DNA of 64,000 nt, from assembly GCA_012441205.1 (NCBI GenBank), contig GCA_012441205.1_4705.1; one strand, written 5' to 3'. Of this stretch, positions 11,490 to 51,590 are shown one piece after another (the stretch's first letter is position 1; each line of letters opens with the position of its first letter). The notes under the pieces are model-generated. The model had not been told where the DNA came from, did no database searches, and saw only the letters and a list, made by a program, of their open reading frames with translations. The stretch comes from a phage. Position numbers and translations under genes: made by a program.

Positions 11490-11520
11490 GTAATATAAGC
11501 GTGAATAATTTTGGATTCCG
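11490..11520 (-). promoter_or_regulatory. candidate early promoter (minus-strand TATATTACC with A/T-rich upstream)
   Basis: plus-strand ggtaatata at 11489-11497, shared context with three other copies; about 55 nt upstream of the gene start at 11432. Confidence 0.45.
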
Positions 11521-11636: not shown

Positions 11637-12428
11637 TTAGAACGCTAAGCCATCAAAGGCTACGGACGGATCATCGTCGTCATTTGCGCTTGGCGCATCC
11701 CAACGGGTATCAGGGGCCGCTGAAGCCGAACTTGATGCGTTAGAGTTACCGTTGTACTGGCCGTTACCAGCATTACGGTTACCGCCGCCGTTGTTATTGT
11801 TACGGTTATAGCTATTGTTGCCACCATTACTTACGCTACGGCTTTCACCGTCGAAATTGGTTGCGAGGATGCTCGGCAACACTGCGCGATGAATACGTAC
11901 AAATTCCAACGCACAAAGCGGAGAAACAACCCCGATCTGTAAAGGTTGCCCAGACTCATCAACCAGAGCGTGGAAACGCGGTGGCTTGAATACGAATTGG
12001 ATGTTCGGTTTTTGGTACGCGGTTACAGCGATATATACCGAACCATCATCGTTCTTACCAACCCATGTTGTACTTTCGGTAATCTGTTTCTTCTTACCTG
12101 GATTATTGCGATCGTCGATAACCTTTTCGTTCTTCATCGCAAAACGTTGGCCTGGCTTACCCTTAGCAACCTGCTCGAGGATCGCAAGCAGGTTATAGAA
12201 CGCGTATGAACTCATGCGTGCCCAAATGCTTTCGGCGCGACCCTGCTGGTCTTTACGACCTGTATAAACCGTGATGCGCGGTTGATTCTTAGCAACGCTA
12301 ATTTTCAATGAGGGGATTGAATTACCGCCCTCAACCTTTTCGTCCGCCCACAGTTTCCAGTTGTTGTCGTCATACGCTGTAGGAATAATGTTTCCTTGTG
12401 GTTTACTGCCCGAATTCCAATTGCTCAT
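11637..12428 (-). CDS. hypothetical protein with SSB-like architecture (Gly/Asn-rich linker, acidic C-terminal tip DDDDPSVAFDGLAF)
   Basis: 263-aa ORF; architecture only, no motif proof. Confidence 0.3.
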   Translation of the reverse strand: MSNWNSGSKPQGNIIPTAYDDNNWKLWADEKVEGGNSIPSLKISVAKNQPRITVYTGRKDQQGRAESIWARMSSYAFYNLLAILEQVAKGKPGQRFAMKNEKVIDDRNNPGKKKQITESTTWVGKNDDGSVYIAVTAYQKPNIQFVFKPPRFHALVDESGQPLQIGVVSPLCALEFVRIHRAVLPSILATNFDGESRSVSNGGNNSYNRNNNNGGGNRNAGNGQYNGNSNASSSASAAPDTRWDAPSANDDDDPSVAFDGLAF

Positions 12429-16771: not shown

Positions 16772-16800
16772 GTAATATAGCCGTGAAAAATGTTGGATTA
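16772..16800 (-). promoter_or_regulatory. candidate early promoter (TATATTAC element)
   Basis: plus-strand aagtaatatagccgtgaaaaatgttgg; about 95 nt upstream of the membrane-protein gene. Confidence 0.4.
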
Positions 16801-18331: not shown

Positions 18332-18556
18332 TTAGCAATGGTTGTTAGTTGCTTCTATTTCGTCAAGATAAGGTTCTACGTCATCGCCCTCCACGAATTC
18401 GTTGAACCAACAGTCAATAGTGGAAATAACCGGTGACTGGTGTTCACATTTCTTAGATACCTTAAAAGGTACGTTATTATCCATCATACCGAGTTCGGGT
18501 CGAAAACGCCCGAAATGTTTCGCAGTCCAAATGTCTGGGACGATATGGTTGTTCAT
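18332..18556 (-). CDS. beta-prime N-like subunit, exon 3 (MNNHIVP...)
   Basis: MNNHIVP...GMMDNNVP...SPVISTID aligns with beta-prime QMAVHVP...LMMSTNNI...PIIVPSQD directly after DFDGD; in frame with the micro-exon. Confidence 0.55.
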   Translation of the reverse strand: MNNHIVPDIWTAKHFGRFRPELGMMDNNVPFKVSKKCEHQSPVISTIDCWFNEFVEGDDVEPYLDEIEATNNHC

Positions 18557-18916
18557 CAATATCTTCAATACGAATCGCTACTTCGTATCCGCAGCATTAC
18601 CTGCAGCTCCTGGTGTTACCAGGATGTTGAGAGTATATCATGTCCATATTCCAAATGGAACGTAGGACTTCCGCGCTGGATCTCGCTTGAGACCACTTAC
18701 TCGTTGAACGTTCTCCTAAAAGGAGCTTCGCTGCTGATTGGACATTGTTACGTACGGTAGGCGTCCCACTAAAGGGATTTTCATTGAAGCCGCGTACATC
18801 CGTTACCTTGTTTCTACCTTATCGGTTCCTCTTACGAGGCGTAACGGCTTTAGCCTATTCCAGCAATTCACGGAATGCATATTCTCCTTTTCAGGAGATA
18901 AGGCCATGGCTCTGGC
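18557..18916 (-). mobile_element. group I self-splicing intron 2 (ORF-less, about 360 nt; 5' boundary approximate)
   Basis: diverged tandem copy of intron 1 with the same P/Q/R/S order; P7 pairs compensate (GAGUA/UACUC versus GAUCA/UGAUC); 3' end GAAGATATTG| before ATGAAC. Confidence 0.6.
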
Positions 18917-18931
18917 ATCACCGTCAAAGTC
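18917..18931 (-). CDS. beta-prime N-like subunit, 15-nt micro-exon GACTTTGACGGTGAT (DFDGD)
   Basis: joins in frame to exon 1 to rebuild NADFDGD; the 5' splice site of the following intron is not resolved, so the exon could be a few codons longer. Confidence 0.55.
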
Positions 18932-19281
18932 CACGTATCTTCAGTATGAATCGCTACTTCATACCCGCAGCATTACCTGCAGCTCCTGGTGTTACCAGGA
19001 CGGAGAGATCATCTCATCACCCACGAAGGGTGTTCCGCGCTACCCTCAGCGAATTCGAGGGACATGATCGTTGAACCTTCCACCGATGATCGATGGCTAG
19101 GCTGCTGATTGGACATTGTGCGTTGGGGTGGCATCCTGGTTCAGGACTGTCATTGAAGCCTCCCAACATCCACTCACTTATTTCCGCCTCATCGGCTCCC
19201 ACAAGGGCAGAGTGGCTTTAGCCCGTCTCAGCAATTCACGGAATTCAAGCTCTTCCTTTCGGAAGGCAGGGCCTCATTTGA
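18932..19281 (-). mobile_element. group I self-splicing intron 1 (ORF-less, 350 nt)
   Basis: exon ends GCU| with a possible U.G pair in P1 (GCUUC/GAGGC); P-like GAATTGCTG, Q-like AATCAGCAGC, R-like GTTCAACGATCA, S-like GATGATCTC; 3' end GAAGATACGTG| before GAC. Confidence 0.7.
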
Positions 19282-20532
19282 AGCGTTGTATCCCTTAAGG
19301 ATCATCACGCTTAACCCGATGGTGTTATCCTGCGGATCGCGTTTAACCTTGGTGATTTCAAGACATTGGTTACTGCTTCGGTCAAGTGATGGGTTTCGAA
19401 CAAAGCCACACACAATCCCATCGAACGGTGTATCAGCAATAAGCTCATCGTGCAGCTCGCTCATCATTGGATGATAATTACGGACATGTTCCGCAACGAA
19501 CGCACGTGCTGCTCTTGGCGAATAACCACGATGGAATAACTTGGATTGGATATGTTCTTTATTGGTTAAAGTAAATGGTGCGTATGGGAAATGCAGATGA
19601 TAATAACGATGGTTTGCTGTTATCGAACTGATTACGGTACGCGTGGTGAATGGATGTAATGTACCTAATATGTTTTTACGTGTGATACCTTTCTTCTTAC
19701 CAATGAACTCATCGAAAATTGCTGCGTGGTATTGCAGTAGCTTCAATTGTACTTTCGCCATCCAGTTTTCTTTCTTTCTGGCGCTCAAAGGTGTTGTTGG
19801 GTGATAGATACTATTCAACGTACCGATAGCATCGATCGCACCTTCCATTTTGCTATCTGCATAACGACCGGTTGGCGTATTCTCGATAACGAACATCATG
19901 GCCGCAGGAAAGCTGATATACTGACTGAAGAACTTATCACGATGGATACGGATGAATTCTCGTAGCGTGTCAACTTTCTCCGTGTTCTTCGGTCCACGTA
20001 ACGTAGGTCCTTTATACAAGATCTCCATGATGCGATCGAAGTTCTGTATAAAGCTATTTACGCCACGTCGTATCCCGAATACATCGAATTGCTGCTCCAG
20101 ATAGTTCTTGAGTTCGATGGGTCGTTTTACATTTGGACGGTAACTGGCATCAATGAGCCACGTCATCGTTTCAAAGCTTTTGATATTCAACTCGCTTGCC
20201 AGCACGAGATGGACCAACGGGTTAATGAACGCATCAATTCCTTCAGGAACACGCGCCCAAACCGTCGAACGAATCTCTTGTTCTGCTGGATAGGTTACAA
20301 CCGTTTTACAGTTCGGACACACCGTACCGAGCAGCTCACCACGATTGTAGAAACCACAACCACATTGTGGTGTGATATCCAACGTATCGCTGGAGTAAAC
20401 ACGGGTGATAAAACTGTTTAATTTCTTCTTCTCTTCGACGACTTTTGTATCGTAATCATTCAACAAAATCGGCGTGAAAGGAAGTTCTGCGAGCTGTCTA
20501 TCGAAACTCACGATATCGAGCATGATGGCCAT
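19282..20532 (-). CDS. RNA polymerase beta-prime N-terminal-like subunit, exon 1 (ends ...KGYNA)
   Basis: zinc-finger CGCGFYNRGELLGTVCPNCKTVV matches beta-prime [41 protein letters not shown] matches NLLGKRVDYSGRSVI; the ORF runs to GYNA and then reads through into intron sequence. Confidence 0.75.
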
Positions 20533-20624: not shown

Positions 20625-22520
20625 TTAGAACAGGTTGAATGCCCCACCCATGTTGTTAACGCCAACATTCGGACGATCGCTACGTGCGTAGATGTTACCG
20701 GAGATGTTACCCAGACCACGAGCACGTGCTGCCATGTTACCACGAACAGCGGTACCTGCCAGATGCTGGATGTTCTCAGGACGGATGGTGAAGCCAGCAT
20801 CAGCAGCGGCCTCGATCAGCGCCTGCAGTGCTAACGGATCGAAGTCGTAACGCATTGCCCAGCCGGTTTGTTCCCAGCTACCAGACAGAACACGATCAAT
20901 GATTTCGTGACGAGCGACAACACGCTGAGACATCGTCATATCGGTACGGTCGAAGCTGTCTTCCCAAGCTTCTACGGTATCCGGGTTAGTGATGTTCATC
21001 ATGTACAGATCGTCCATATCACGAATATCGTGACGGTGACCATCCTGGTGGTTATAATGACCCAGCGGGATACGGTTACCGGTAGCGTAGACCAGTGGTG
21101 CGCCGTACTGATATTTCTTGCTGAAGCAACCCAGGGTAGTATCATCGAAGGCACGGAAGAGTGCTTTGTAACCTTCGGAGATTTCCCGGACTTCACCTTC
21201 AACTTTGCCCGTATAGATCTTCTCAGCCGCCGGGATCATACGCAGCAGCCAGCTGTATTCGCCTTCTTCCGGTACGTCGATAGAAATCAGCAGAGACGGA
21301 TACAGTACCTGTTGCAGGAACTTGTAAATCTGCTCGTTGGTTTGAGTAGACAGATCCAGCGGTGCGGTAACTTCCGGATCCAGTACCATCGCCAGAGCAC
21401 CCGGGTTATGCGGACCAATACCACGAGCAGCGTTGCTGATTAAAGACTGTGCCCACGCCATACCGCTGTTCAGCGTAGCGATGGTGCCAATCAGACCCAA
21501 CACGAAAGTGTTCGGCGTGAACGCATCCAGCTCCAGCGGGTAAGCGCTGGTCATCACGTAACGCGGTTGGTATTGTACAGTCGGCGGTACCGGATAACCG
21601 TTAACCAGAACAGGGCCTTGGTTGAAGGTCGGGTTCTGCGGGCTGTAGGTCAGGTCAATGTAACCGGTGGTTGCGACCAGACGCTGCTGACTATCGTAAT
21701 CGCTCATCGCTTGACGGATGCGGTTAGAGATAGTTACAGTGATGTCAGAACGCACAGGGTTACCAACAATATCGCTGTCCTGCATACCGCTGGTGTTGTA
21801 CTGAACGCTGCTGATTGGCTGATCGCTTGCCATCATGCCCAGGTTGAACTGCGGCAGACCCAGTTTATCGCCGAGACGGATTTCGATCGCGGTTTGGATT
21901 GCGTTATCTGCAGCAGACAGCAGGGTGGTTGCCAGATGCGCAGATTCAGCGGTGATTTCATTGGTCACCACAGCCAGACCAGCGATACGAGCAGTACCAT
22001 TAGACTTACCACCGATAGCTGCATACATTGCCGCCATGACTTCGTTGATGAACGTACCGTTCAGGTTATCAACCCAGGTACGCGGCACCAGAATGTTACC
22101 ATGCGGGCCTTGTTCTTCACGACGCGGCAGCGGAGCCAAACCGGCAACCAGTGGAAGCACATAACCGAAGAAGTGGTTATGGTCACCAACTTTTGCACCG
22201 CTCATAACAACCAGGGTCGGATACGGTACACTGTATTGGTTAGGATCGACGGTCACCATGATGAAGTCGTCTTTGAATCCTTTATCTTCCAGTTCTTTTT
22301 CCATCAGACGACGGAGATTCAGTACCTGCTCGGAGCCAGTATTACGGCTAATACGACGGCTCAGTGTACGGTTGATCGTACGCATCGTATGAGTTACTTT
22401 AGGCTGGCCAGCAAAATCTGCAGCGGTTTCCAGCGCCTCATCAGCACGTTGTGCGGTGCGGGTTTCAGCTGCACGAATTTCTACATTATCGTTACCGTTA
22501 TTACGTACGTCTAAGCCCAT
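20625..22520 (-). CDS. abundant early protein, candidate nuclear-shell (chimallin-like) protein
   Basis: 631 aa with flexible N/C tails, strong AAGAGGAA RBS, TATATTACC element about 75 nt upstream, lies directly upstream of the beta-prime-N gene; identity not verified. Confidence 0.35.
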   Translation of the reverse strand: MGLDVRNNGNDNVEIRAAETRTAQRADEALETAADFAGQPKVTHTMRTINRTLSRRISRNTGSEQVLNLRRLMEKELEDKGFKDDFIMVTVDPNQYSVPYPTLVVMSGAKVGDHNHFFGYVLPLVAGLAPLPRREEQGPHGNILVPRTWVDNLNGTFINEVMAAMYAAIGGKSNGTARIAGLAVVTNEITAESAHLATTLLSAADNAIQTAIEIRLGDKLGLPQFNLGMMASDQPISSVQYNTSGMQDSDIVGNPVRSDITVTISNRIRQAMSDYDSQQRLVATTGYIDLTYSPQNPTFNQGPVLVNGYPVPPTVQYQPRYVMTSAYPLELDAFTPNTFVLGLIGTIATLNSGMAWAQSLISNAARGIGPHNPGALAMVLDPEVTAPLDLSTQTNEQIYKFLQQVLYPSLLISIDVPEEGEYSWLLRMIPAAEKIYTGKVEGEVREISEGYKALFRAFDDTTLGCFSKKYQYGAPLVYATGNRIPLGHYNHQDGHRHDIRDMDDLYMMNITNPDTVEAWEDSFDRTDMTMSQRVVARHEIIDRVLSGSWEQTGWAMRYDFDPLALQALIEAAADAGFTIRPENIQHLAGTAVRGNMAARARGLGNISGNIYARSDRPNVGVNNMGGAFNLF

Positions 22521-22592
22521 TTGGGATTCCTCTTTTCTTAAACTTTATTAAATGACGTCATTGAATCAGCTTCTACTCGCTCATTCACCTAG

Positions 22593-22625
22593 GTAATATA
22601 ACCCTGAAATTTTTTTCAATATTGG
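22593..22625 (-). promoter_or_regulatory. candidate early promoter (TATATTACC element) for the chimallin-like gene
   Basis: plus-strand taggtaatataaccctgaaatttttttcaatatt; about 75 nt upstream of the ATG at 22520. Confidence 0.45.
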
Positions 22626-22747
22626 TGTAACCACATTGAACGATATAAACCCCTAGGCGAACGCTGCCGAGAAGCAACATTCTTTCTACATATAATCAGG
22701 ATATGTCTGTAAACTTTTACTTCTCTTATTGAGAGTAATGTCATATC

Positions 22748-22759
22748 CGTTTACCATCT
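22748..22759 (+). promoter_or_regulatory. conserved 12-mer CGTTTACCATCT in 5' leader
   Basis: identical 12-mer 15-16 nt upstream of two unrelated plus-strand genes. Confidence 0.35.
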
Positions 22760-22774
22760 TCTTACGGAGTTCGT

Positions 22775-23869
22775 ATGTTTCGTGTTTTAAATAACCTCCC
22801 GCGAACATCATCGGGTGTGCAACCCGTCCCTCAGAAAGACTATCTAATACGCGAAGTTCAAAGAAACCTACAGACAATCCAGAACCACTATCAAGGTTTT
22901 ACCTTCGCGGTTCAGAGCGATCACATCCTTGCGTTGCTGCTCGCACAGCTCCCTATGAGATACGACATCTCAGTACAAACTTACTACGACATGATTCTCG
23001 ATCTTACTCCAGAATTGGGTAATCGTGTTAAGTTGACAACATCAAGATACGCGGGTAAGTTATTCGACGGTGCTTTCTATCCGGGATTGCACGAAGCTAT
23101 TATCGCAACCGGTGAAAGTCGTCTTATTTCACGTGACGTTCTTGACAACTGGCGTAATTGGTCACCGGTTAGAATCGTGACGCACCCATACTCAAATCTT
23201 CGTTACATTCCTCTTCACCGAAAGCCGGTTGAAGAAGGACGAGGTTTTGCGGTCATTATGGTTGATGTACCTTTATTAGCGCTACAGTATCGAATGTGGT
23301 CTTTGGTCATGGGTCATAACGTCGACGGCAAATGGGTGGTTAAAGAACCGGTTACAAGCTTCCTTGCGAGTTTTCCGTTGGTTAACGCATTATACTCACA
23401 CAACGATGTTGTTATACGCAATCGTTGTTTGTGGGTATCTCCGGCTAAGAATCCACTCAAATCACCAATTTACGTTAACGACCTTGATAACGTATTCAGT
23501 CAAGTCGTTCTGTCCGTACAGCATCATTTATTACGAAGAAGACGAAGCTACACCGACATGCTTAAACAGATACCGAGTTTATACGGGGATCAGTACCAAG
23601 CAACCCGAATGGGTTACACCGTCGATCTTCGGCAAACGCGATGGGCAAGGGATCTGGGTTGTCTGTCATTATGGCAACAACTCGTCACGTTGCAAAACGT
23701 ATCTGAAAGCGTCGGGTTCAGCAGTCAAATCGATAATGACCTGTACCGTGCTGCCGACCGGAGTCTAAAAGAAGGTAACTGGGAGTCCTCTCCGTTACCT
23801 GGCGATTTAAGACGTGAAGTTATCGCACAGGTTGCCGACCTCTTAAAAATTCTTCCCGCTGGTGCATAA
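22775..23869 (+). CDS. hypothetical protein
   Basis: 364-aa plus-strand ORF, ACGGAG RBS, conserved 12-mer in leader. Confidence 0.5.
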   Translation: MFRVLNNLPRTSSGVQPVPQKDYLIREVQRNLQTIQNHYQGFTFAVQSDHILALLLAQLPMRYDISVQTYYDMILDLTPELGNRVKLTTSRYAGKLFDGAFYPGLHEAIIATGESRLISRDVLDNWRNWSPVRIVTHPYSNLRYIPLHRKPVEEGRGFAVIMVDVPLLALQYRMWSLVMGHNVDGKWVVKEPVTSFLASFPLVNALYSHNDVVIRNRCLWVSPAKNPLKSPIYVNDLDNVFSQVVLSVQHHLLRRRRSYTDMLKQIPSLYGDQYQATRMGYTVDLRQTRWARDLGCLSLWQQLVTLQNVSESVGFSSQIDNDLYRAADRSLKEGNWESSPLPGDLRREVIAQVADLLKILPAGA

Positions 23870-23897
23870 TAACCTCCCTCCTCCCTTGCATCCTCCC

Positions 23898-23929
23898 AAC
23901 CCGTAAGGGAAGGGAGGATGGGGTGGTGG
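23898..23929. terminator. hairpin between convergent genes
   Basis: 9-bp stem catcctccc/gggaggatg. Confidence 0.45.
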
Positions 23930-23935
23930 GTTATG

Positions 23936-26089
23936 TTACTCTGCGGTTTCTTGCTTCGGTAAATAACTTGCTGCGATGTCTTGGGCTAACAATGTATTGT
24001 TTTTATTCGAGATGAAAATACCATAACTTTCCATTAACGCGTAATACGAACGCACGAGCGTAGAGATCAATCGACGAATATCCATACCTTGAATAAAGAT
24101 ATCAGGAAGCCCGGAGGCTTCGATCACCGGTAATGGTATCGTTAAGTTGCTTATCGTTTTCTTATCGTTACGTACAATCCAATCACGGAAACGTTGTTGT
24201 AACCCTTTATCCTCCCAGGAATCAATCCAATCGTTAAGAAGCGTTTTGTTCTTCGTCGCCAACGGCACACGAACCCCAACATAGGGTGGTTCCTGGCAAT
24301 GGCCGTACGATTGAGCAAACACCTCTTCCCACATATCGTAAGACTGTTTCGTTACTGCAACATGCGGTTTCACTTTAACACGTGTTAAGAAATCAGGATC
24401 ACCACGTTTCATGGACTCAACGATTTCGTTTTCTAACGAGATAATATCGTCAAGAACCAATCGAATGCTGATCTTCTCGTTACGTAACAGCTTATCCATG
24501 ATACCACACATCATGCGTTCAACACGTTTGACGATCATTTTTGGTGCTGACGCATCGCGCATAACCGGACCTTTCAATTCCAGCTTCGGTGGATTGATGG
24601 GAACCCCTTCACGCATGGTCATGTATCCGTAATAGTTTTTACCCATCGAGGTTAACGACAGAATCAAGAACATATATTCGTTCTTCATTTCCATTACGTA
24701 CATATGCTCTTTCGCTACACCGATATTACCAGAACACATCGCCATCAGATGAACCGTAATCTGCGTAACCAGATAGATAAGCGTATTTGCTAAGCGCGTC
24801 GAAATTGGATTGATCTCCATATTTCCAAATCGCCACTGAACCCACTCCTGGCAGGTAAACACCGTCGAGTCGGTATCAGACAACACACCCACTTCACGGA
24901 TTGCTGACGGAAAAGCATAAACACCGGCCGGTTGGTTCTCGGTACGCCATAACGCCTTAATTAAATCAGCGTAGCTTTGGATGCGTTGCAACATTAATTT
25001 TGTCGTTGCTGCAGTAAGACGATAACCAAGTTCATTTCCTTTTTCCAGAGCTACGTAAATCGCTTCCCCGTTCAAGAACTCCGTGCATTGTGCCGTAATC
25101 CAAGCGACCGTGTTGTTATCCATGGAAGCAATAATGGCTTTAGCCTCTTCCATCGTTTCAACAGGTTCGGATGCCAGCTCGCATAACGAATCAAGAAAAT
25201 CTCGAACAAATTCAGGATTAAGCTCACGTAACGAGTACAGGTTATTGCTATACATGTAGCAGGCGCGTTCCAGTGGGGTTAAACCGGTAATTAACTCCCG
25301 GATAGTCAGTTCTTTCTCTGGGTCGAAAGTATACCGATGCAAGCATTTCGATACGTTAGCCCAAACCTCTTCCGGCGTAGGGTAATGTAGTTTGTATTTT
25401 ACCATTACCTGTTCAATGGCTTTACGATCGCTGTTGCGGACAATACTCACGATGTTTTCAATTGCGATATCACAATCGTAATAATGGAAATTGCCCGCAA
25501 GGAAGCGTTCGTTGTTCGCATTGGCTGAACCTGAAGCACAGCGACACGTTGTCGTTAAACTTGGATGCGCAATTGGATTATAAAAAGGGTTAAACTTGGA
25601 CGCCTGGGTTCCTGACAAACTGTTGTTATCTAACTTGGTGTTGGTTTGTCGTTTATCGTGTAACTCAGCTTCATCTTTACGTCCGTGTGCTTGCGCTATC
25701 GACATTTGTTTCTTTTGTTTCTTACGCAACTTACCGTTTTCAACCGCAAAGTCGCTTAGCACACTGGAACGTGTTTCACGTGGATAACAGTTAGCCCACA
25801 CCGGCGTGATAATTAAATTATTTTCTTTAATATCATTGAAGTATTGGCTGAACATGATGACTTCTTTTTCTCGATTTCCTTCGGTGCGCTGTGTTAATAC
25901 AAGGCAGTCGGGATCAACCATCCCGTATTTTCCACCAGGACGAACCGTATCAAGGACAAACTGCAACGCTTCCTGCTGTGATATCCCACGCATGCGCATT
26001 AAGAACAGGGTATAATCCTGTACCGCTTCTTTGGTCATATCCAACGTACGGCCATATCCGTTTTCATCGTAAAAGAACGGATTTTCCAT
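23936..26089 (-). CDS. large hypothetical protein with polymerase palm-like motifs (SDTDS then KNYYGY)
   Basis: 717 aa; DTDS and a K-x-Y motif about 80 aa later resemble family-B DNA polymerase motif C and KxY; motif A not clearly found. Confidence 0.3.
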   Translation of the reverse strand: MENPFFYDENGYGRTLDMTKEAVQDYTLFLMRMRGISQQEALQFVLDTVRPGGKYGMVDPDCLVLTQRTEGNREKEVIMFSQYFNDIKENNLIITPVWANCYPRETRSSVLSDFAVENGKLRKKQKKQMSIAQAHGRKDEAELHDKRQTNTKLDNNSLSGTQASKFNPFYNPIAHPSLTTTCRCASGSANANNERFLAGNFHYYDCDIAIENIVSIVRNSDRKAIEQVMVKYKLHYPTPEEVWANVSKCLHRYTFDPEKELTIRELITGLTPLERACYMYSNNLYSLRELNPEFVRDFLDSLCELASEPVETMEEAKAIIASMDNNTVAWITAQCTEFLNGEAIYVALEKGNELGYRLTAATTKLMLQRIQSYADLIKALWRTENQPAGVYAFPSAIREVGVLSDTDSTVFTCQEWVQWRFGNMEINPISTRLANTLIYLVTQITVHLMAMCSGNIGVAKEHMYVMEMKNEYMFLILSLTSMGKNYYGYMTMREGVPINPPKLELKGPVMRDASAPKMIVKRVERMMCGIMDKLLRNEKISIRLVLDDIISLENEIVESMKRGDPDFLTRVKVKPHVAVTKQSYDMWEEVFAQSYGHCQEPPYVGVRVPLATKNKTLLNDWIDSWEDKGLQQRFRDWIVRNDKKTISNLTIPLPVIEASGLPDIFIQGMDIRRLISTLVRSYYALMESYGIFISNKNNTLLAQDIAASYLPKQETAE

Positions 26090-26164
26090 AAATCCTCCAA
26101 AAGTTATTTAGTCTGTCTACATCATCTCGTATATCTGTTAAAAAAGAAGGACGGCATAAAAAAG

Positions 26165-26192
26165 AACCGATCCAGCCGAAGCCAGATCGGTT
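26165..26192 (-). terminator. hairpin aaccgatc/gatcggtt followed by U-run
   Basis: 8-bp stem, TTCTTTTTTAT downstream in minus sense. Confidence 0.45.
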
Positions 26193-26388
26193 AAAAAGGA
26201 TAATAACTGACAGAAAGATATCGATGATGTTCGTGAAACAAGATCTTCTCTCGTGTACAATGATGCTAGATCAGAGGGAGGTTGTAACACGAGAGGTGGT
26301 CCGCCAAAGAAGGAATAAAAAACACGAACCTATCTTATTTCACTGATGGCACTAACCACTCAAAATATATAGTACCGTATGTAAAAGT

Positions 26389-26802
26389 TTACTGATTAAT
26401 CAAGTCGTTAGCAACAATCTTGGTGTAACCCGCCTGATTAAGAATTTGATTAATTTTCGTCACGTCGGTCGCATCCTCAATAACGATGCTGGGTTTATAG
26501 ATCAGCGTCTTGGTAACGACGATTGTACTCTCCTTAATCCAAGGAATCCCTAGAATCACATACTCACCATCGGCTGTAATGACCTCGACGTAATTGTATT
26601 TCGTCGGATCGTTCGGTACACTAGACGGGAGCCGGGAATAAATCTGTTGGTGAATGGCGTCTACATCACGACCGTTACGTACAGCTGTGCGATAATTGTA
26701 CACAGCGCTAATTTCTACTCCGTTGAAGTTAACCCCAAGTTCTGGGGCGTACACATCAAAACTCACAACAGAGCCAATCTTTTCTAAATCAGAAGCTGGC
26801 AT
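26389..26802 (-). CDS. hypothetical protein
   Basis: 137-aa ORF. Confidence 0.45.
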   Translation of the reverse strand: MPASDLEKIGSVVSFDVYAPELGVNFNGVEISAVYNYRTAVRNGRDVDAIHQQIYSRLPSSVPNDPTKYNYVEVITADGEYVILGIPWIKESTIVVTKTLIYKPSIVIEDATDVTKINQILNQAGYTKIVANDLINQ

Positions 26803-27334
26803 AATAGCATCCTTTATTTAAAATGTATTCATATCCGAAAGTCGTCGCTGACCAGACCCGGATAGATGATAGTGTTCCGCCACGATAAAACGTTTTTGTG
26901 AATTCCATATCCTGGACAACACGATAATAAACACGTCCGATAATACGCACGATAAGGTTTCGTGATAACGATCTCTCCTCGCAGTATTCATCGATAAAGT
27001 CATCGTCGATATCCGATAAGACAACATCCGCAATTTCTTGCAGTAGATTCCTCATCAGCATCTGCCTTCCTTCGGTACCCCACCCAGACAAACAGTAATC
27101 GTCTTCTGCCTGACTATAGATGTCGTTAACCGCCTGTTCGAGCAGTTGCTCAAGATAGTAGTCATCGCGTTTTATAACGTGGCGACGGCGCTCAGTGGCG
27201 TATTTTTCCATCCTGTGTTTCTCTTGTTCGGCGTATGTATTAACGACGCCACAGTCTTTTCTGGATCGTCCCACAATGCGCGACGAAAACTGGATACTAC
27301 CATAACGGTAGGATAGATTTGTACAACCTCCCAT
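26789..27334 (-). CDS. hypothetical protein (start uncertain; overlaps next ORF in another frame)
   Basis: 181-aa ORF overlapping 27172..27660. Confidence 0.3.
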   Translation of the reverse strand: MGGCTNLSYRYGSIQFSSRIVGRSRKDCGVVNTYAEQEKHRMEKYATERRRHVIKRDDYYLEQLLEQAVNDIYSQAEDDYCLSGWGTEGRQMLMRNLLQEIADVVLSDIDDDFIDEYCEERSLSRNLIVRIIGRVYYRVVQDMEFTKTFYRGGTLSSIRVWSATTFGYEYILNKGCYYASF

Positions 27335-27660
27335 CCGTAACGATGTGCGTTAGTCGTACGTCCGACATTGAACAGACATAACTGATTTAAGAAACAGAGC
27401 TGCATCTTCGTAAACAACACCATATCTTCACGTTTAACGTATCCGAGGATATATGCATTCTCGAACGCCTCGCGTGACAAGACGGGACGATTAAGATACC
27501 GTAACGCTAATACCAACAACGTTGTTATGCGCAACGGATCTTCTGGGTCATTCATGGTGCTCAGCTCTGCTTGTAACCAGTCAGGGATAGTAACCGTCAG
27601 ACGATAGGTATCTGTTCCACGATCAACCACATTCAATGTTGAAAAAGGCAACATATCCAT
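27172..27660 (-). CDS. hypothetical protein
   Basis: 162-aa ORF. Confidence 0.4.
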   Translation of the reverse strand: MDMLPFSTLNVVDRGTDTYRLTVTIPDWLQAELSTMNDPEDPLRITTLLVLALRYLNRPVLSREAFENAYILGYVKREDMVLFTKMQLCFLNQLCLFNVGRTTNAHRYGWEVVQIYPTVMVVSSFRRALWDDPEKTVASLIHTPNKRNTGWKNTPLSAVATL

Positions 27661-28117
27661 GAATTCCTTCTAGCTCGAGGTTGTTCTCGCCGGTCTTCGG
27701 TAATAACCCACTGGCCGTTAACATCTGTGTCATCGAGTAGTCAAAGCACGGGAATATCAGGTTAACGGTTTCCTGGATCGCGTCAACATAACTATAAATG
27801 GCTTCATAATACTCACCGTCATGATCTACGCTAACCAGTTCCTGACACAGTTCTTCGCTTATCATTTCATATACCGGCGGATACCACGATTGAAATGGTC
27901 GCTGCATACGTAACGACCAATACTCGTACGTCGTATACTGAAGCACGTCGTAAGCCGATACGTTAATGCGGTCGAAGAAAGCATACTTGTCCATATGCTG
28001 ATACAACATCGCCAGCACGGTTTCCAAGCACACCGATATCCGCACGCCGTCATCTTTCCCGTTAAGAAAATTAGGTTTCTGCCGATAACGCACAAATGCC
28101 GACGGCTTTGATTGCAT
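27623..28117 (-). CDS. hypothetical protein
   Basis: start set at MQSKPS where ATG overlaps the upstream stop (TAATG). Confidence 0.4.
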   Translation of the reverse strand: MQSKPSAFVRYRQKPNFLNGKDDGVRISVCLETVLAMLYQHMDKYAFFDRINVSAYDVLQYTTYEYWSLRMQRPFQSWYPPVYEMISEELCQELVSVDHDGEYYEAIYSYVDAIQETVNLIFPCFDYSMTQMLTASGLLPKTGENNLELEGIHGYVAFFNIECG

Positions 28118-28800
28118 TATTCCACCACCAACCATAACGTCATACTCGTATCTAACGTAAAATTGAAATGCCACCAATCTTCTACACGTGGAATCCACGT
28201 ACGAAGGATTTGGTTAACTTCGCTTCGCATCACCGATAAACGACAACGAAAATCGAACTTCTCATCATGACCGTAGTCTTCATGCATGAAAACTTCATCC
28301 AAAACGAACTCAAGTTGCATGTCGACATCACGACCAGAGATATTCCGTTTGTACAGATACAGTTCAATCGTGTCGTAAAGCAACGTATGAATATCATAAT
28401 TTCCGTTCGGTGAGAAATAAGGTAATCGCTCATCGAGCATCGAAAACAGATATTCACTGTAGTTTAATAACGGGATGATGTACCGACGTCCGGTCTGTGG
28501 TGCGCGAATATGTATCGAAACCTGACTTGGACGCGGAATAGCCGACGGCTTAGAATCGTCTCTCTGAAATTGCTCTAAAGATCGCAACAAAGGTGGCCGC
28601 ATTGTAACTCTCCAACGCCCAATTGTAAGGCCCTTCCAACATGTGTTCCCATACGTGAATAAACTCGCTACCGAAGACAGGCTCCAGCGCCATGGTGAGA
28701 TTCGTAAGTTCTGACGCGGCCGCATGGTAAGCATCAACATGTCTTTCCATTGACGGATCGTCTTCATTGAAAATACGTTCTGTGTCGCCAGCCCGCTCAA
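28117..28800 (-). CDS. hypothetical protein (N-terminal extent uncertain)
   Basis: 227-aa ORF; N-terminal part overlaps 28550..29179 in another frame. Confidence 0.35.
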   Translation of the reverse strand: MSGLATQNVFSMKTIRQWKDMLMLTMRPRQNLRISPWRWSLSSVASLFTYGNTCWKGLTIGRWRVTMRPPLLRSLEQFQRDDSKPSAIPRPSQVSIHIRAPQTGRRYIIPLLNYSEYLFSMLDERLPYFSPNGNYDIHTLLYDTIELYLYKRNISGRDVDMQLEFVLDEVFMHEDYGHDEKFDFRCRLSVMRSEVNQILRTWIPRVEDWWHFNFTLDTSMTLWLVVE

Positions 28801-29179
28801 TAAGTTCGGTAATGAGATCTGTCCATGTCTCGTGACACGTCATCATTTCCTGTTCTCGACTTAGTATGCCGATGTCTGCGTGGACGCTGGACTCGAACCG
28901 GTCTAAAAGGACCCGAAGAACGTGCACCTTGTCGATGTATTTCACCGTTATCCAAGAAAGCGGTTGCCACCGACTCAGCATCCATCCGGTACTCGGGAAC
29001 CCCAAACTCATATAGTACGGGTTGCACCGGACCGAAGACGGAGCGACGTTGTTTAAATCGTTCCTTAAGGGCAAGGCCTTGTTTAATATAAACGGGTTCA
29101 TTGGCGAGTTGTTCCGCTTTTCGTTTTGCGTGAGCCAATCGAAGTTCTTCCAATTGCCCAAGCCATTCAAATTGTTCAT
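28550..29179 (-). CDS. hypothetical protein (frame conflict with neighbours)
   Basis: 209-aa ORF with protein-like C-terminal half. Confidence 0.3.
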   Translation of the reverse strand: MNNLNGLGNWKNFDWLTQNEKRNNSPMNPFILNKALPLRNDLNNVAPSSVRCNPYYMSLGFPSTGWMLSRWQPLSWITVKYIDKVHVLRVLLDRFESSVHADIGILSREQEMMTCHETWTDLITELIERAGDTERIFNEDDPSMERHVDAYHAAASELTNLTMALEPVFGSEFIHVWEHMLEGPYNWALESYNAATFVAIFRAISERRF

Positions 29180-29774
29180 CTGTTAGCTCCTGGGGACGTT
29201 CAACAATCGCGCCAGACGGGCAGATATTGATCGTAATGTTAATTGACGGCATCGCCATCACTCGAGGATTACTATTACGTACGCGGACAACGTGTTCGGT
29301 TGCTGATTTACGATCGACGCAATACTCTGTTTCTTGGAACTCAAATGCTTTTAACGGTGTTGGTTTTGTTTGACGTTTAGGAACGCGGCCAAGATCGACA
29401 ATATAGGCATAATCGCACACACGTTCTATTCCGTAAATACGGTTATCCGACCAGTTCTTACCAAACAGCTTATTGTGGTGATAAGACAGATATTCGGTTA
29501 CCATACCCTGGACAACATCGAAGTCTTCTCGAAATTCAGGTTGGTACCAAATCGGACCGAGAATATCTGCGAACGATTCATGACGATATCGAGGATCATG
29601 TCGAGTCCAGGTCATTCTCTGATTAAGATCGAAATCCACCAACAACTCGGTTAATTGCAATTTTTCCTTCGGAGAAAGCTGGCGTTGATGATGCAAACTC
29701 AGGCAATCGATAAGCGGTAATGAAACCCACGATGCTAATGTGTACAAATCGATCCTGGCTAATCTCTTGGTCAT
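28797..29774 (-). CDS. hypothetical protein (3' end uncertain)
   Basis: 325-aa ORF; Arg-rich tail looks non-coding. Confidence 0.4.
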   Translation of the reverse strand: MTKRLARIDLYTLASWVSLPLIDCLSLHHQRQLSPKEKLQLTELLVDFDLNQRMTWTRHDPRYRHESFADILGPIWYQPEFREDFDVVQGMVTEYLSYHHNKLFGKNWSDNRIYGIERVCDYAYIVDLGRVPKRQTKPTPLKAFEFQETEYCVDRKSATEHVVRVRNSNPRVMAMPSINITINICPSGAIVERPQELTDEQFEWLGQLEELRLAHAKRKAEQLANEPVYIKQGLALKERFKQRRSVFGPVQPVLYEFGVPEYRMDAESVATAFLDNGEIHRQGARSSGPFRPVRVQRPRRHRHTKSRTGNDDVSRDMDRSHYRTY

Positions 29775-29865
29775 ACTCTTTTCCTAAGTCCCCATTGTTT
29801 ATACACACGATATCTGGGAATAGTTAAAATATACGGCGTAAAACGAAGCAGGAGAGTTTCTGACG

Positions 29866-30186
29866 TCATTTTCTCCCTCTTCGAATACCACCGATACCTC
29901 TTTCGTCTAAGACGTCCCAGGCACGCTTTATTTCATCCTCTGTTGCTCTGGTATCTGGAGGGACAACCATAACACAGTCGTGGAATGGCCAATGTGTAGG
30001 TCTGGGGTTAGCGAACAAATCATCCCATTCAAATGTCCATTCTTTCTTTGAGCGGTTGTAGTAGAACGTAAGATACGTATTGGTGTATGCTAGATAACCG
30101 TGCATAACCTCAATATTCTTACGATCCAGCCGTTCCTGATTCCAATCGTTAAACCGCTTTCTTATTTTCTCCCACCATTTTCCCAT
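29866..30186 (-). CDS. hypothetical protein
   Basis: 106-aa ORF, AGGAGAAAGC RBS, follows a UUCG-loop terminator. Confidence 0.5.
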   Translation of the reverse strand: MGKWWEKIRKRFNDWNQERLDRKNIEVMHGYLAYTNTYLTFYYNRSKKEWTFEWDDLFANPRPTHWPFHDCVMVVPPDTRATEDEIKRAWDVLDERGIGGIRRGRK

Positions 30187-30209
30187 GCTTTCTCCTACAC
30201 GGCATAAAA

Positions 30210-30229
30210 GCCTGCCCCGAAGGACAGGC
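30210..30229 (-). terminator. hairpin with UUCG tetraloop followed by UUUUAU
   Basis: 8-bp stem GCCTGTCC/GGGCAGGC in transcript sense. Confidence 0.5.
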
Positions 30230-30239
30230 TCGATAGAAC

Positions 30240-30440
30240 TTAACGACCATCCAATTTCAATGAAGGATGGTTGACGATATGTGCGTGTTTTGCTGGGTCA
30301 TATAGCTGATATGGAAAATAGCCATGCCATTGACGGCCTTGGCATTTCGTACACAGGAACTGACCAACACCTTGTCGATTCTCGTAAGCGAGTTCGGTAC
30401 TATCAACATGACCGCAACGTTCGCAGATAAACAGCGACAT
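30240..30440 (-). CDS. small zinc-ribbon protein
   Basis: 66 aa with CxxC...CxxC (CERCGH...CTKCQG). Confidence 0.5.
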   Translation of the reverse strand: MSLFICERCGHVDSTELAYENRQGVGQFLCTKCQGRQWHGYFPYQLYDPAKHAHIVNHPSLKLDGR

Positions 30441-30477
30441 AGCGCATCCCCATTCACTTGAACCTTTTGGTTCGGCA

Positions 30478-31458
30478 TTAGAAAAGCAAGAAACCGCTAT
30501 TCTTCGCTTCCGCTACAGTTTCGTCACCAACTTTCGGCGCTTGTTGACGTGCGTTACGATGTTCGATGTAACGTTTCGCTTCGTCCGCGATCTGTTTGAT
30601 AATACCCCCTAAACGATCGGTACTTAAAACAAACGACGTCGCTTCACGAATTGGGCTGCTTTCAGGCACAAAACCATCGCAGCTGTAAATAGCGCTAACG
30701 CCCATGACTTTTGTCGCGTCTTTCGGATAAAGCGTACAGAAAGCAATCGGGCTATCGTTCTCTTTCGTCCAATCGTATCCCATGAACGTATTCAGTTCGG
30801 TGATCGTTGGTTCCAAACCGGTAACACGTGGATGGTTTAAGAAGTTTTCCAGGTCGGCGCTGTCAAGACGACGGTTCTCGCCAGAAAACAGAACACAAAG
30901 CTGGCTAATAACAACCTGCACGTCCAGGTTGACATCCTGCTCCGATTTCCCATTTTCGCCATTCATGTGATAGCTAACAATCACTGGACGTTTCAACCCT
31001 TCTGCAGCCGCCATCAGTCCTTTGAAGGTGCGATCGGCGTTGATCGTTTGACGCTCGTCATCGAACGAGGCAACGATGCAACACACCACACGTTCACCAC
31101 GTTCCAGCAGGTTAGCAACCAACGCAGGACCTGCAACAGAACCTGAACCACCGCTCAGACTAAAGACCACGATATTAAATTTACCTGGCGTATGCTTATT
31201 CAGAATACCCGGGATTTGTGAACAGATCAGTTCAGCGTTCTCATCACGCTTCTTACCAGAACCGTCTAACTCACGACCGGCTACATCTTTAAAGATGTAA
31301 ATATGATCGTCACCCAGTGTGCTATCGCGTAGGTTAGCGCGGCTGGTATCGACATACGTCATGCTGTGTAATCCTTTCGCGACTTCGCCTTCAAATGCTG
31401 AGCCGATTTCGCCACCACAACCACCGACAGCCCAAATATGTACTTGGTTCTCTTGCAT
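30478..31458 (-). CDS. phuZ: tubulin/FtsZ-like GTPase, PhuZ-like
   Basis: N-terminal IWAVGGCGGEIG (T1 loop-like) and FSLSGGSGSVAG (tubulin signature GGGTGSG-like); 326 aa. Confidence 0.65.
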   Translation of the reverse strand: MQENQVHIWAVGGCGGEIGSAFEGEVAKGLHSMTYVDTSRANLRDSTLGDDHIYIFKDVAGRELDGSGKKRDENAELICSQIPGILNKHTPGKFNIVVFSLSGGSGSVAGPALVANLLERGERVVCCIVASFDDERQTINADRTFKGLMAAAEGLKRPVIVSYHMNGENGKSEQDVNLDVQVVISQLCVLFSGENRRLDSADLENFLNHPRVTGLEPTITELNTFMGYDWTKENDSPIAFCTLYPKDATKVMGVSAIYSCDGFVPESSPIREATSFVLSTDRLGGIIKQIADEAKRYIEHRNARQQAPKVGDETVAEAKNSGFLLF

Positions 31459-31522
31459 GTGAACTCCTAACTTAATATGTATTTAACGTACAATGAATCT
31501 TTCTTTGCTAAAGGGGTGACCC

Positions 31523-32365
31523 ATGGGTGCTATTGACTACAGTGTAGATCGTATCTGTCGTACAATACCGGCAGATATCCTACAGTATTGCTATATCGAT
31601 CGTTACGACTGGCGTAATCGCTATCCTCGTTCCGTAGAAGACATCATTACCGATTGGGTAATCCGTAAACGGGTTATCGGCGACATCGATATCTACGGGG
31701 GACTACAAACCGTTATTCCCCTTGATGATGCAGGTGTCACAATCGAAGAAGTCACCATTAACTGTTATGTTTTCCACATTCCGTTGGAAGCCACACAGGG
31801 ACGTTATATCACGTCCGCATTATCCATTATTTCAGGGAGCGTGAACAACTACGGAATAAACTATAACGGGCAATGGGGCGCTTTCAACCAAACCCAATTT
31901 CAACGTCAGCTTTGTGGGTGGAACCCCGCAAGCAACACGTTACAGCAAGGGATGAACGCGTTCGGTCCCATGAACGTTCTTAGTACAGCCAACGTTGATA
32001 TCATCGCCCCTAACACCATCATGGTGAACAACGTCACGCCTGTACAATTTCCCCTGAGCCTACGCTGTTTCCTTGCCCACGATCCGGAACTTACCAACCT
32101 CAGCATGGAGGTTTGGAACGACTTCTACAAACTCTGTTTATACGCCACGCAAAGTGACATCTACAACAGAACCGTTATCCGTCTCGATAGAGGTGTTACA
32201 GCACAAGGACAAGAAGTCGGTGCATTCAAGGAATACATCGATCGCTTTGCTGATGCTGAAAACACATATCAGGAATTCCTGAACGAAACGTGGGCTGGCG
32301 TTGCTGCCTGGAACGATCCACAAACTAAACGTCGCGCCATTCGACTACAAACCGGTTACTTCTGA
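31523..32365 (+). CDS. hypothetical protein
   Basis: 280-aa plus-strand ORF, AAAGGGGTG RBS. Confidence 0.5.
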   Translation: MGAIDYSVDRICRTIPADILQYCYIDRYDWRNRYPRSVEDIITDWVIRKRVIGDIDIYGGLQTVIPLDDAGVTIEEVTINCYVFHIPLEATQGRYITSALSIISGSVNNYGINYNGQWGAFNQTQFQRQLCGWNPASNTLQQGMNAFGPMNVLSTANVDIIAPNTIMVNNVTPVQFPLSLRCFLAHDPELTNLSMEVWNDFYKLCLYATQSDIYNRTVIRLDRGVTAQGQEVGAFKEYIDRFADAENTYQEFLNETWAGVAAWNDPQTKRRAIRLQTGYF

Positions 32366-51556: not shown

Positions 51557-51590
51557 GTAATATAGACCTCAACTTTTTTCCAATAATGCT
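51557..51590 (-). promoter_or_regulatory. candidate early promoter (TATATTACC element)
   Basis: plus-strand ttaggtaatatagacctcaacttttttccaataat; about 125 nt upstream of the start at 51433. Confidence 0.45.

Follow-up and report, generated by a model that had tools for sequence, protein, structure and literature searches.

Chimallin and PhuZ genes in a Goslarvirus genome segment

A 64,000-nucleotide stretch of phage DNA (contig GCA_012441205.1_4705.1 of the NCBI GenBank assembly GCA_012441205.1, hereafter the window) was found to carry chmA, the gene for chimallin, the major shell protein of the phage nucleus, together with phuZ, the gene for a phage tubulin. With these two genes the window is almost certainly a piece of the genome of a nucleus-forming Goslarvirus, a jumbo phage of enterobacteria in the family Chimalliviridae. 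Whole-window BLAST showed it to be collinear with positions 149,294-214,444 of Escherichia phage vB_EcoM_Goslar (NC_048170) at ~97% nucleotide identity, and the sole break in collinearity was an indel block at 18906-19282, directly downstream of an RNA polymerase (RNAP) gene. When 50,697 phage records were searched by megablast, Goslar was the sole match of both chmA (97.3% nucleotide identity) and phuZ (97.8%), and its orthologues are named 'nuclear shell protein' and 'tubulin PhuZ' in RefSeq. The Chimalliviridae context was also present, namely the gp55-, gp68-, gp71/73- and gp74-like subunits of the non-virion RNAP (nvRNAP), a divergent DNA polymerase, ChmC and homologues of gp63 and gp64, with the genes of the virion RNAP (vRNAP) located at ~57-64 kb by collinearity with Goslar gp205-207. 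Sequence identity, membership of families, the order of genes, the presence of motifs and the boundaries of introns were all shown in this analysis. An earlier reading of the same letters, made without database searches (the original prediction), had proposed a nucleus-forming phage, and the chimallin and PhuZ matches in Pfam, PHROGs and PDB bore this out. Both identifications are already known biology, the window holding new alleles of two experimentally characterised Goslar proteins. The two genes and their ribosome-binding sites are located as follows.

20625..22520, minus strand: chmA, chimallin, the major phage-nucleus shell protein, 631 amino acids (aa) (Pfam, PHROG, PDB)
22528..22532, minus strand: chmA ribosome-binding site GAGGA, read from the sequence, 7 nt before the ATG
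30478..31458, minus strand: phuZ, phage tubulin, 326 aa (PHROG 4733; PDB 9PM9, 3ZBP)
31464..31468, minus strand: phuZ ribosome-binding site AGGAG, read from the sequence, 5 nt before the ATG

ChmA is a close relative of the structurally solved Goslar chimallin

The 631-aa protein matched the Pfam family PF25677 (Chimallin_Phikzvirus) with 92.3 bits against a cutoff of 27 (E = 2.7e-26, residues 21-595 of 631) and PHROG 4795, 'nuclear shell protein', over residues 19-629 (4.9e-52). In a PDB sequence search, Goslar chimallin (7SQT) was matched over residues 1-631 with E=0, and 8FNE, 7SQQ and 8IGG over residues 62 to about 600; phmmer E-values for the distant chimallins of PhiPA3, 201phi2-1 and phiKZ ranged from 2.6e-10 to 6.5e-21. 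All four PDB matches were chimallins, in agreement with the chimallin-like character proposed originally, and the strong ribosome-binding site named at the same time corresponds to the Shine-Dalgarno-like GAGGA. The profile search suggested there as a check thus recovered chimallin in both Pfam and PHROGs, and PhuZ in PHROGs (3.2e-68).

Of 631 residues, 623 (98.7%) were identical to Goslar gp189 (PDB 7SQT), with 8 aa and 52 nt differences. The substitutions, written from Goslar to the window, are Y76E, T80K, R81G, F88M, A90T, Y455F, V461T and L474A. They all fall within residues 76-90 and 455-474; the N-terminal residues 1-75 and residues 475-631, with the C-terminal tail, are therefore identical to Goslar. 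The N-terminal segment (NTS) and C-terminal segments (CTS1 and CTS2) of Goslar ChmA have been resolved, and they join protomers into tetramers and these in turn into the lattice (Laughlin et al., PMC9365700), and these extended regions are present unchanged in the window protein. The ratio of 8 aa to 52 nt differences in chmA, like that of 2 aa to 22 nt in phuZ, indicates purifying selection.

Goslar ChmA (Goslar_00189 / HOV27_gp246; PDB 7SQT, 7SQU, 7SQV) has the same length of 631 aa and the same position, between a 364-aa plus-strand gene and the gene for the nvRNAP subunit beta-prime-N. The chimallins of 201phi2-1 (gp105), PhiPA3 (gp53) and phiKZ (gp54), represented by 7SQQ, 8FNE and 8IGG, share the family, the fold and the tail-mediated square lattice, and these Pseudomonas phages also share the gene order of chmA followed by nvRNAP beta-prime-N. 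They are, however, only ~19% identical to the Goslar type (PMC9365700), in which CTS2 is shorter.

Self-assembly of Goslar ChmA into a shell that encloses phage DNA has been demonstrated (PMC9365700, PMC10541120). The protein is essential in Goslar, where its knockdown stops infection at the membrane-bound early infection vesicle, and its mRNA is made in that vesicle by the injected virion RNAP (PMC10541120). Given the 98.7% identity, the window ChmA would be expected to form a DNA-enclosing shell as well. By analogy with Goslar, the injected vRNAP would transcribe chmA early, using a promoter of the TATATTAC type, and translation would follow in the cytoplasm. Self-assembly of the product would yield a flexible square lattice, with contacts made by the N-terminal segment inside tetramers and by the two C-terminal segments from one tetramer to the next; this lattice would enclose the replicating phage DNA and shut out ribosomes and host nucleases.

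Variation of ChmA was also seen among 15 cluster members. At residues 76/80/81/88/90 two linked haplotypes occurred: 7 members, the window among them, have E-K-G-M-T, and 8 have Y-T-Q/R-F-A. In Goslarviruses the 76-90 block is a common haplotype with two alleles. Position 474 showed four states (A, L, S, Q). The variable residues 76-90 and 436-474 (about 21100-22295 in the window) had no obvious tie to the assembly tails.

An early-promoter-like element upstream of chmA

The TATATTACC element that the original prediction had placed upstream of the 631-aa gene is present at 22592-22600 on the minus strand, 71 nt upstream of the chmA ATG. It has three exact copies in the window against 0.47 expected, a number reached in 1 of 100 shuffles. 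It forms part of a longer element.

22586..22618, minus strand: early-promoter-like element (GAAAAAAATTTCAGGGT TATATTAC CTAGGTG) upstream of chmA, resembling the published consensus

Four TATATTAC sites were located in the window (11490-11497, 16772-16779, 22593-22600 and 51557-51564), all of them on the minus strand, which is the coding strand, and all intergenic, with the common flanks A-rich..TT(C/G)A(C/G)G..TATATTAC(C/T)T..GTG. They precede chmA, the gene for the gp68-like nvRNAP subunit and two small hypothetical genes (Goslar gp182 and gp214). The early-promoter consensus is TATATTAC in phiKZ and TTTRARR_BTATATTACDWHDGTG in 201phi2-1 (PMC7058600, Table 2), and the virion RNAPs of the phiKZ-like group read early promoters that are AT-rich motifs of this kind, with their centre near -10 (PMC7598289). 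An early-promoter role of the motif may be inferred by analogy with phiKZ and 201phi2-1; a Goslar transcription-start map was not found in the literature. Sigma-70-like promoter matches in the window were at chance level (23 found, 25 expected), which fits host-independent transcription.

PhuZ is nearly identical to the nucleus-rotating tubulin of Goslar

The 326-aa protein matched PHROG 4733, 'tubulin PhuZ', over residues 1-323. Its PDB matches were the PhuZ proteins of Goslar (9PM9, 1.6e-219), phiKZ (gp39, 3ZBP, 8.7e-29) and 201phi2-1 (3R4V, 5.8e-15). The tubulin/FtsZ GTP-binding loops recognised in the original prediction are visible as GGCGGEIG (residues 12-19) and SGGSGS (102-107), and the catalytic aspartate D202 lies within RLDSADLENFL (T7 region). 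Identity to Goslar PhuZ (Goslar_00201 / HOV27_gp234; PDB 9PM9, 9PMK) reached 324 of 326 residues (99.4%), the two substitutions from Goslar to the window being A59V and E229D, with 22 nt differences; D202, the GTP-binding loops and the C-terminal tail are conserved.

In Goslar, a GTP-dependent vortex of PhuZ filaments around the nucleus has been shown, and the GTPase-dead mutant D202A abolishes both the vortex and nucleus rotation (PMC9891218). The window PhuZ, by analogy, would form GTP-dependent filaments around the nucleus. As a GTP-dependent tubulin, it would assemble into dynamic filaments that form a vortex round the nucleus and rotate it, with D202 driving GTP hydrolysis. The PhuZ proteins of 201phi2-1 (gp59) and phiKZ (gp39) share the tubulin fold, the GTP-dependent filaments and the nucleus-rotating role at an identity of ~27%. 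In the Pseudomonas phages, PhuZ forms a bipolar spindle by which the nucleus is centred as well; the Goslar type instead forms a vortex without nucleus positioning (PMC9891218, PMC12908238).

Alternative explanations

That the 631-aa protein might be a capsid or other virion structural protein instead of the nuclear shell has next to no probability, as no support for it was found and structural hints were confined to the neighbouring genes. A capsid or other structural fold was looked for in the PDB sequence search, in which chimallins were the only matches; the Pfam and PHROG matches were chimallin-specific, and near-identity to 7SQT refutes the idea. For the 326-aa protein, one may consider a tubulin of the TubZ/FtsZ type that would serve plasmid or prophage segregation or interfere with host division, with no part in nucleus rotation. 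The protein does match the generic tubulin/FtsZ GTPase domain (Pfam Tubulin PF00091, E = 1.1e-6), and PhuZ is dispensable in some chimalliviruses (PMC11724907; PMC12768965). The PF00091 match is significant, yet its 29.6 bits lie under the cutoff of 33, which is expected given that PhuZ proteins are divergent; no observation contradicted either the chimallin or the PhuZ identification. All PDB sequence matches at E<=0.001, however, were phage PhuZ proteins (Goslar, phiKZ gp39 and 201phi2-1) with no TubZ or FtsZ among them, so that the search, far from indicating the lack of a tubulin fold, led to solved PhuZ tubulins. The PHROG 4733 match is full-length, and the closest relative, at 99.4% identity, is the very protein whose D202A mutant halts nucleus rotation in Goslar (PMC9891218). 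A segregation or division role is accordingly very improbable, and the protein is read here as PhuZ.

It is equally improbable that the region is an inactive remnant, either a degraded prophage or an assembly artefact in a bacterial genome, whose genes are not expressed as a nucleus system. Such a reading could draw on two observations: assemblies of E. coli O157, Salmonella and Shigella include the exact ChmA and PhuZ sequences under the name 'hypothetical protein', and the beta-prime-N open reading frame (ORF) appears truncated at 434 aa. Those records, however, are contigs of ~235-260 kb, the size of a whole Goslarvirus genome, and fit the published class of lytic phages seen within assemblies of bacteria (237 Goslarvirus genomes, PMC12768965). 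A megablast of the intron region described below against complete RefSeq E. coli genomes gave no match; finished genomes accordingly do not harbour the phage. Furthermore, every tested ORF is intact with mostly synonymous changes, and the apparent truncation is accounted for by introns whose removal restores the NADFDGD motif.

The same database records were noted in their own right. NCBI lists the exact ChmA and PhuZ sequences under E. coli O157, Salmonella serovars and Shigella with the name 'hypothetical protein'. The contigs concerned, ~235-260 kb long, are complete Goslarvirus genomes that were assembled together with bacterial isolates and wrongly assigned to the host; they are among the 237 Goslarvirus genomes that have been reported from bacterial isolate assemblies (PMC12768965).

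Gene neighbourhood of chmA and phuZ

Direct adjacency of the 631-aa gene to a downstream RNAP gene, noted in the original prediction, was confirmed, with the chmA stop codon 92 nt before the ATG of the 434-aa ORF (19228-20532, minus strand). The adjoining gene had been taken for an early RNAP; it instead encodes the phiKZ gp55-type subunit of the non-virion enzyme (7OGP_A, 1.4e-60). The nvRNAP transcribes late and probably middle genes, and the virion-packaged RNAP transcribes early genes (PMC7598289, PMC10541120). The beta-prime-N gene is at most an early-expressed gene.

The view of 20625-31458 as one phage-nucleus module did not hold either. The two genes are 8 kb apart, and between them lie a 364-aa plus-strand gene, the divergent DNA polymerase, a terminator-like hairpin, an SH3-fold protein associated with phage DNA polymerases (SH3DP) and about nine orphan ORFs. 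A single contiguous operon-like module was rejected on this gene content and on the hairpin, a strong one at 26165-26192 (minus strand) between the SH3DP and DNA polymerase genes; the terminator scan was otherwise at chance level. The 364-aa ORF had a weak match to PHROG 14481, 'virion structural protein' (4.8e-11), and neither its product nor the ChmC homologue had a PDB sequence match. Eight ORFs were scanned from the SH3DP gene up to phuZ, and six of them had no Pfam or PHROG match. Matches among the ORFs from SH3DP to phuZ were those of SH3DP itself, a 106-aa ORF (a PHROG of unknown function) and a 66-aa ORF. The last, a CxxC...CxxC protein at 30240-30440 (minus strand) directly downstream of phuZ, resembles an Elf1-like Zn-ribbon at a sub-threshold level (Pfam E=9e-4, 19.7 bits, cutoff 29.8).

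On its other side phuZ adjoins the gene of a portal-associated virion protein, which is not a nucleus gene. Its PDB match 11ed_U is named 'Portal Assembly Protein gp233'; this name shows that the gp numbers of the Goslar virion-structure preprint follow RefSeq numbering.

23936..26089, minus strand: divergent family B DNA polymerase (Pfam PF20286, 8.6e-204)
26389..26802, minus strand: SH3DP (Pfam PF20287, 1.3e-36; PHROG 3235, unknown function)
31523..32365, plus strand: portal-associated virion protein, 280 aa, Goslar gp233, phiKZ gp42-like, DUF7484 (PDB 11ed_U, 8.3e-196; 9xpe (PHIKZ042), 3.4e-24)

A conserved cluster of DNA polymerase, ChmA, nvRNAP subunits, ChmC and the gp63/gp64 shell-associated proteins has been described (bioRxiv 10.1101/2023.09.22.559000; PMC10643120). 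In the window it extends from chmA away from phuZ, to about position 232. It includes a homologue of Goslar gp176, which is ChmC, a nucleus-associated RNA-binding protein (PMC10643120; bioRxiv 10.1101/2023.09.22.559000).

11637..12428, minus strand: chmC homologue, Goslar gp176 (coordinate mapping to HOV27_gp176 / YP_009820861; PHROG 3284, 1.6e-36)
9846..11432, minus strand: nvRNAP subunit, phiKZ gp68-like (PDB 7OGP_B, 6.4e-28), with TATATTAC at 11490-11497 just upstream
8258..9844, minus strand: PhiPA3 gp63 shell-associated homologue, Goslar gp174 (maps to YP_009820859, the gp63 homologue per PMC10643120)
6922..8202, minus strand: PhiPA3 gp64 shell-associated homologue, Goslar gp173 (maps to YP_009820858, the gp64 homologue per PMC10643120)
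4303..6636, minus strand: nvRNAP beta, phiKZ gp71/73-like (PDB 7OGP_C, 1e-85)
232..2238, minus strand: nvRNAP beta-prime C-terminal subunit, phiKZ gp74-like (PDB 7OGP_D, 1.3e-86)

The nvRNAP beta ORF may start 55 codons before the start annotated in Goslar (777 versus 722 aa), and its phiKZ gp71 match begins at residue 88. In the virion RNAP region, a group I intron at 61435-61821 (minus strand) scored above the Rfam gathering score (57.8 versus 50 bits). It corresponds to the Goslar non-coding RNA gs002 and sits between two ORFs (Goslar gp206 and gp207), so that the vRNAP gene also appears split.

The beta-prime-N gene is split by two probable group I-like introns

The identification of the 434-aa ORF as an RNAP subunit stood, but not its standing as the full gene: the ORF consists of exon 1 and a run-on into an intron. 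Its end comes 18 codons beyond ...GYNA, the point at which a continuation of the universal NADFDGD motif would be expected. The phiKZ homologue gp55/gp56.1 (7OGP chain A), which is the same subunit, carries the catalytic NADFDGD near its C-terminus. Comparison with intron-minus alleles divided the window gene as follows.

19282..20532, minus strand: nvRNAP beta-prime-N exon 1, phiKZ gp55-like, ending ...GYNA (TAC AAC GCT) (7OGP_A, 1.4e-60 for the ORF alone; boundary from intron-minus alleles)
18932..19281, minus strand: intron alpha, ORF-less, group I-like, 350 nt, at site S2 (NA/DFDGD, Ala-Asp) (Rfam RF00028, 30.1 bits, E=1.9e-5)
18914..18931, minus strand: mini-exon GACTTTGACGGTGATGCC, 18 nt, encoding DFDGDA with the catalytic Mg-binding aspartates (gapless alignment of the spliced product to phiKZ gp55/56.1)
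18557..18913, minus strand: intron beta, ORF-less, group I-like, 357 nt, at site S4 (after DGDA) (Rfam RF00028, 30.4 bits, E=1.5e-5)
18332..18556, minus strand: beta-prime-N exon 3 (MNNHIVPD..., ATGAACAAC), in Goslar a separate hypothetical gene, gp185

The spliced product of 497 aa aligned without gaps to phiKZ gp55/56.1 through NADFDGDAMNNHIVPDIW (NADFDGDQLNLTLMPDVY in phiKZ), and the 7OGP_A match rose from 1.4e-60 for the ORF alone (residues 21-418) to 1.1e-74 (residues 21-476). Unoccupied alleles were found for both introns, the site of alpha being empty in locus L009 and in Goslar, and that of beta in L006 and L009. Intron alpha has U at -1 and G at its 3' end; beta has a terminal G and a 5' exon that ends in C. 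The two introns are 65% identical. RNAalifold on two alpha and four beta sequences predicted 97 pairs, of which 30 had changes on both sides and 51 were invariant, so that covariation in this small alignment supports the secondary structure.

Two observations speak against the group I assignment. Both introns scored under the RF00028 gathering score of 50 in a 1.3-kb search, with the full model length matched, and the 5' exon of the window beta ends in C (GCC/A) versus GCT/T in the other beta alleles. On balance, the comparative evidence argues that beta-prime-N is assembled from three exons by removal of two group I-like introns. An initial splice model that joined NADFDGD to MNNH with a 15-nt exon was rejected, as only the 18-nt exon (DFDGDA) aligns without gaps to phiKZ gp55 and fits the sister alleles.

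The predicted spliced mRNA joins ...TACAACGCT/GACTTTGACGGTGATGCC/ATGAACAAC, and the beta-prime-N subunit of the nvRNAP would serve middle and late genes within the nucleus. In annotation, the ORFs of 434 aa and 78 aa should become a single spliced nvRNAP subunit. In the PDB, 7OGP chain A is named as a fusion of PHIKZ055 and PHIKZ056.1, which suggests that the phiKZ gene may also be interrupted. The first intron of Goslar beta-prime-N is a different one from alpha; it contains an HNH gene and lies 5 nt further downstream.

The window-type beta, shared with loci L014 and L016, has further features. At the junction 18914-18916 / 18913 its predicted P1 helix is still paired (GCCA/UGGC). Its first ~35 nt are unlike those of all other beta alleles, and it is 84% identical overall to Goslar beta.

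Intron occupancy in the NADFDGD segment of Goslarviruses

The window was compared with ten public contigs whose ChmA is identical to that of the window, with Goslar and with two IMG/VR contigs. The loci were 18332-20532 (minus strand) in the window, L005-L017, and 167,622-170,910 in Goslar. L005 was excluded for an assembly gap; the IMG/VR scan gave three loci, one of which (L015) is Goslar itself and was counted once. Across these 14 Goslar-like genomes, four insertion sites were found within 34 nt of the NADFDGD coding segment.

Site S1: GGN T/AT, within the Tyr codon; occupied by delta
Site S2: GCN/GAY, between Ala and Asp; occupied by alpha
Site S3: GAY TT/Y, within the Phe codon; occupied by gamma
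Site S4: GAY GCN/ATG, after DGDA; occupied by beta

The gamma and delta introns occur with or without an HNH endonuclease gene, the two HNH proteins being Goslar gp186 and a 323-aa ORF in L009 and L012, and the sites were occupied in seven combinations.

alpha only: L006, L010, L013
alpha + beta: window, L014, L016
gamma + beta: L007, L008
gamma (HNH) + beta: Goslar
delta (HNH) only: L009
delta (HNH) + beta: L012
delta + gamma + beta: L011, L017; three introns with two 13-nt exons between them

Neither a fully intron-less allele nor a co-occurrence of alpha with gamma or delta was found among the compared genomes. Each intron boundary was confirmed by an unoccupied allele in a sister genome, and when the introns were removed in silico, each of the seven configurations yielded one and the same peptide, GLSVMILKGYNADFDGDAMNNHI. 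U is the final base of every 5' exon and G that of every intron, with the window-type beta (exon C) as the sole exception. The beta intron of L012 (locus ~10,700-11,000) carries an extra 36 nt in one peripheral hairpin (391 versus 355 nt) and had no Rfam match at E<=0.01.

The exon segments around the sites were unusually divergent. Nine of 36 exon nucleotides differed synonymously between the window and Goslar, that is 25% versus ~3% genome-wide, the pattern expected from co-conversion with incoming introns or from selection for endonuclease resistance. Comparison of window 18900-19300 with Goslar 168,150-169,700 also showed that the codons of LKGYNA differ by intron class, namely CTT AAG GGA TAC AAC GCT with alpha, CTC AAA GGT TAT AAT GCC with gamma and TTG AAA GGG TAT AAT GCA with delta. 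Such class-specific synonymous codons suggest repeated homing or co-conversion.

Multi-intron phage genes are known, for example Twort orf142 with three group I introns (Landthaler & Shub 1999, as summarised in PMC11878797) and the DNA polymerase and terminase genes of Bastillevirinae (PMC11878797). In contrast to these, the Goslarviruses have four sites packed into 34 nt of one catalytic motif with 13-26-nt exons, and seven occupancy combinations among near-identical genomes. A description of the beta-prime-N intron hotspot was not found in the searchable literature. We put the chance at about even that the NADFDGD segment is a hotspot of group I intron turnover in Goslarviruses that is both real and undescribed. 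An intron endonuclease in a chimallivirus RNAP gene is known to mediate phage competition (PMC11620839), and co-infecting Goslarviruses possibly compete through their introns in a similar way, as for PhiPA3 gp210.

Implications

Little is at stake in the identification of the window as part of a nucleus-forming phage, as its proteins are ~99% identical to Goslar proteins with published structures, localisation and knockdown phenotypes. It does have annotation value, in that the name 'hypothetical protein [Escherichia coli O157 / Salmonella]' can confidently be replaced in the records concerned. The intron hotspot may be the only new part of the analysis. If confirmed, it would be a natural population series in which to study the sharing of one catalytic motif by several mobile introns, and it would bear on how ribozymes cope with 13-18-nt exons and on whether intron endonucleases shape competition among co-circulating nucleus-forming phages.

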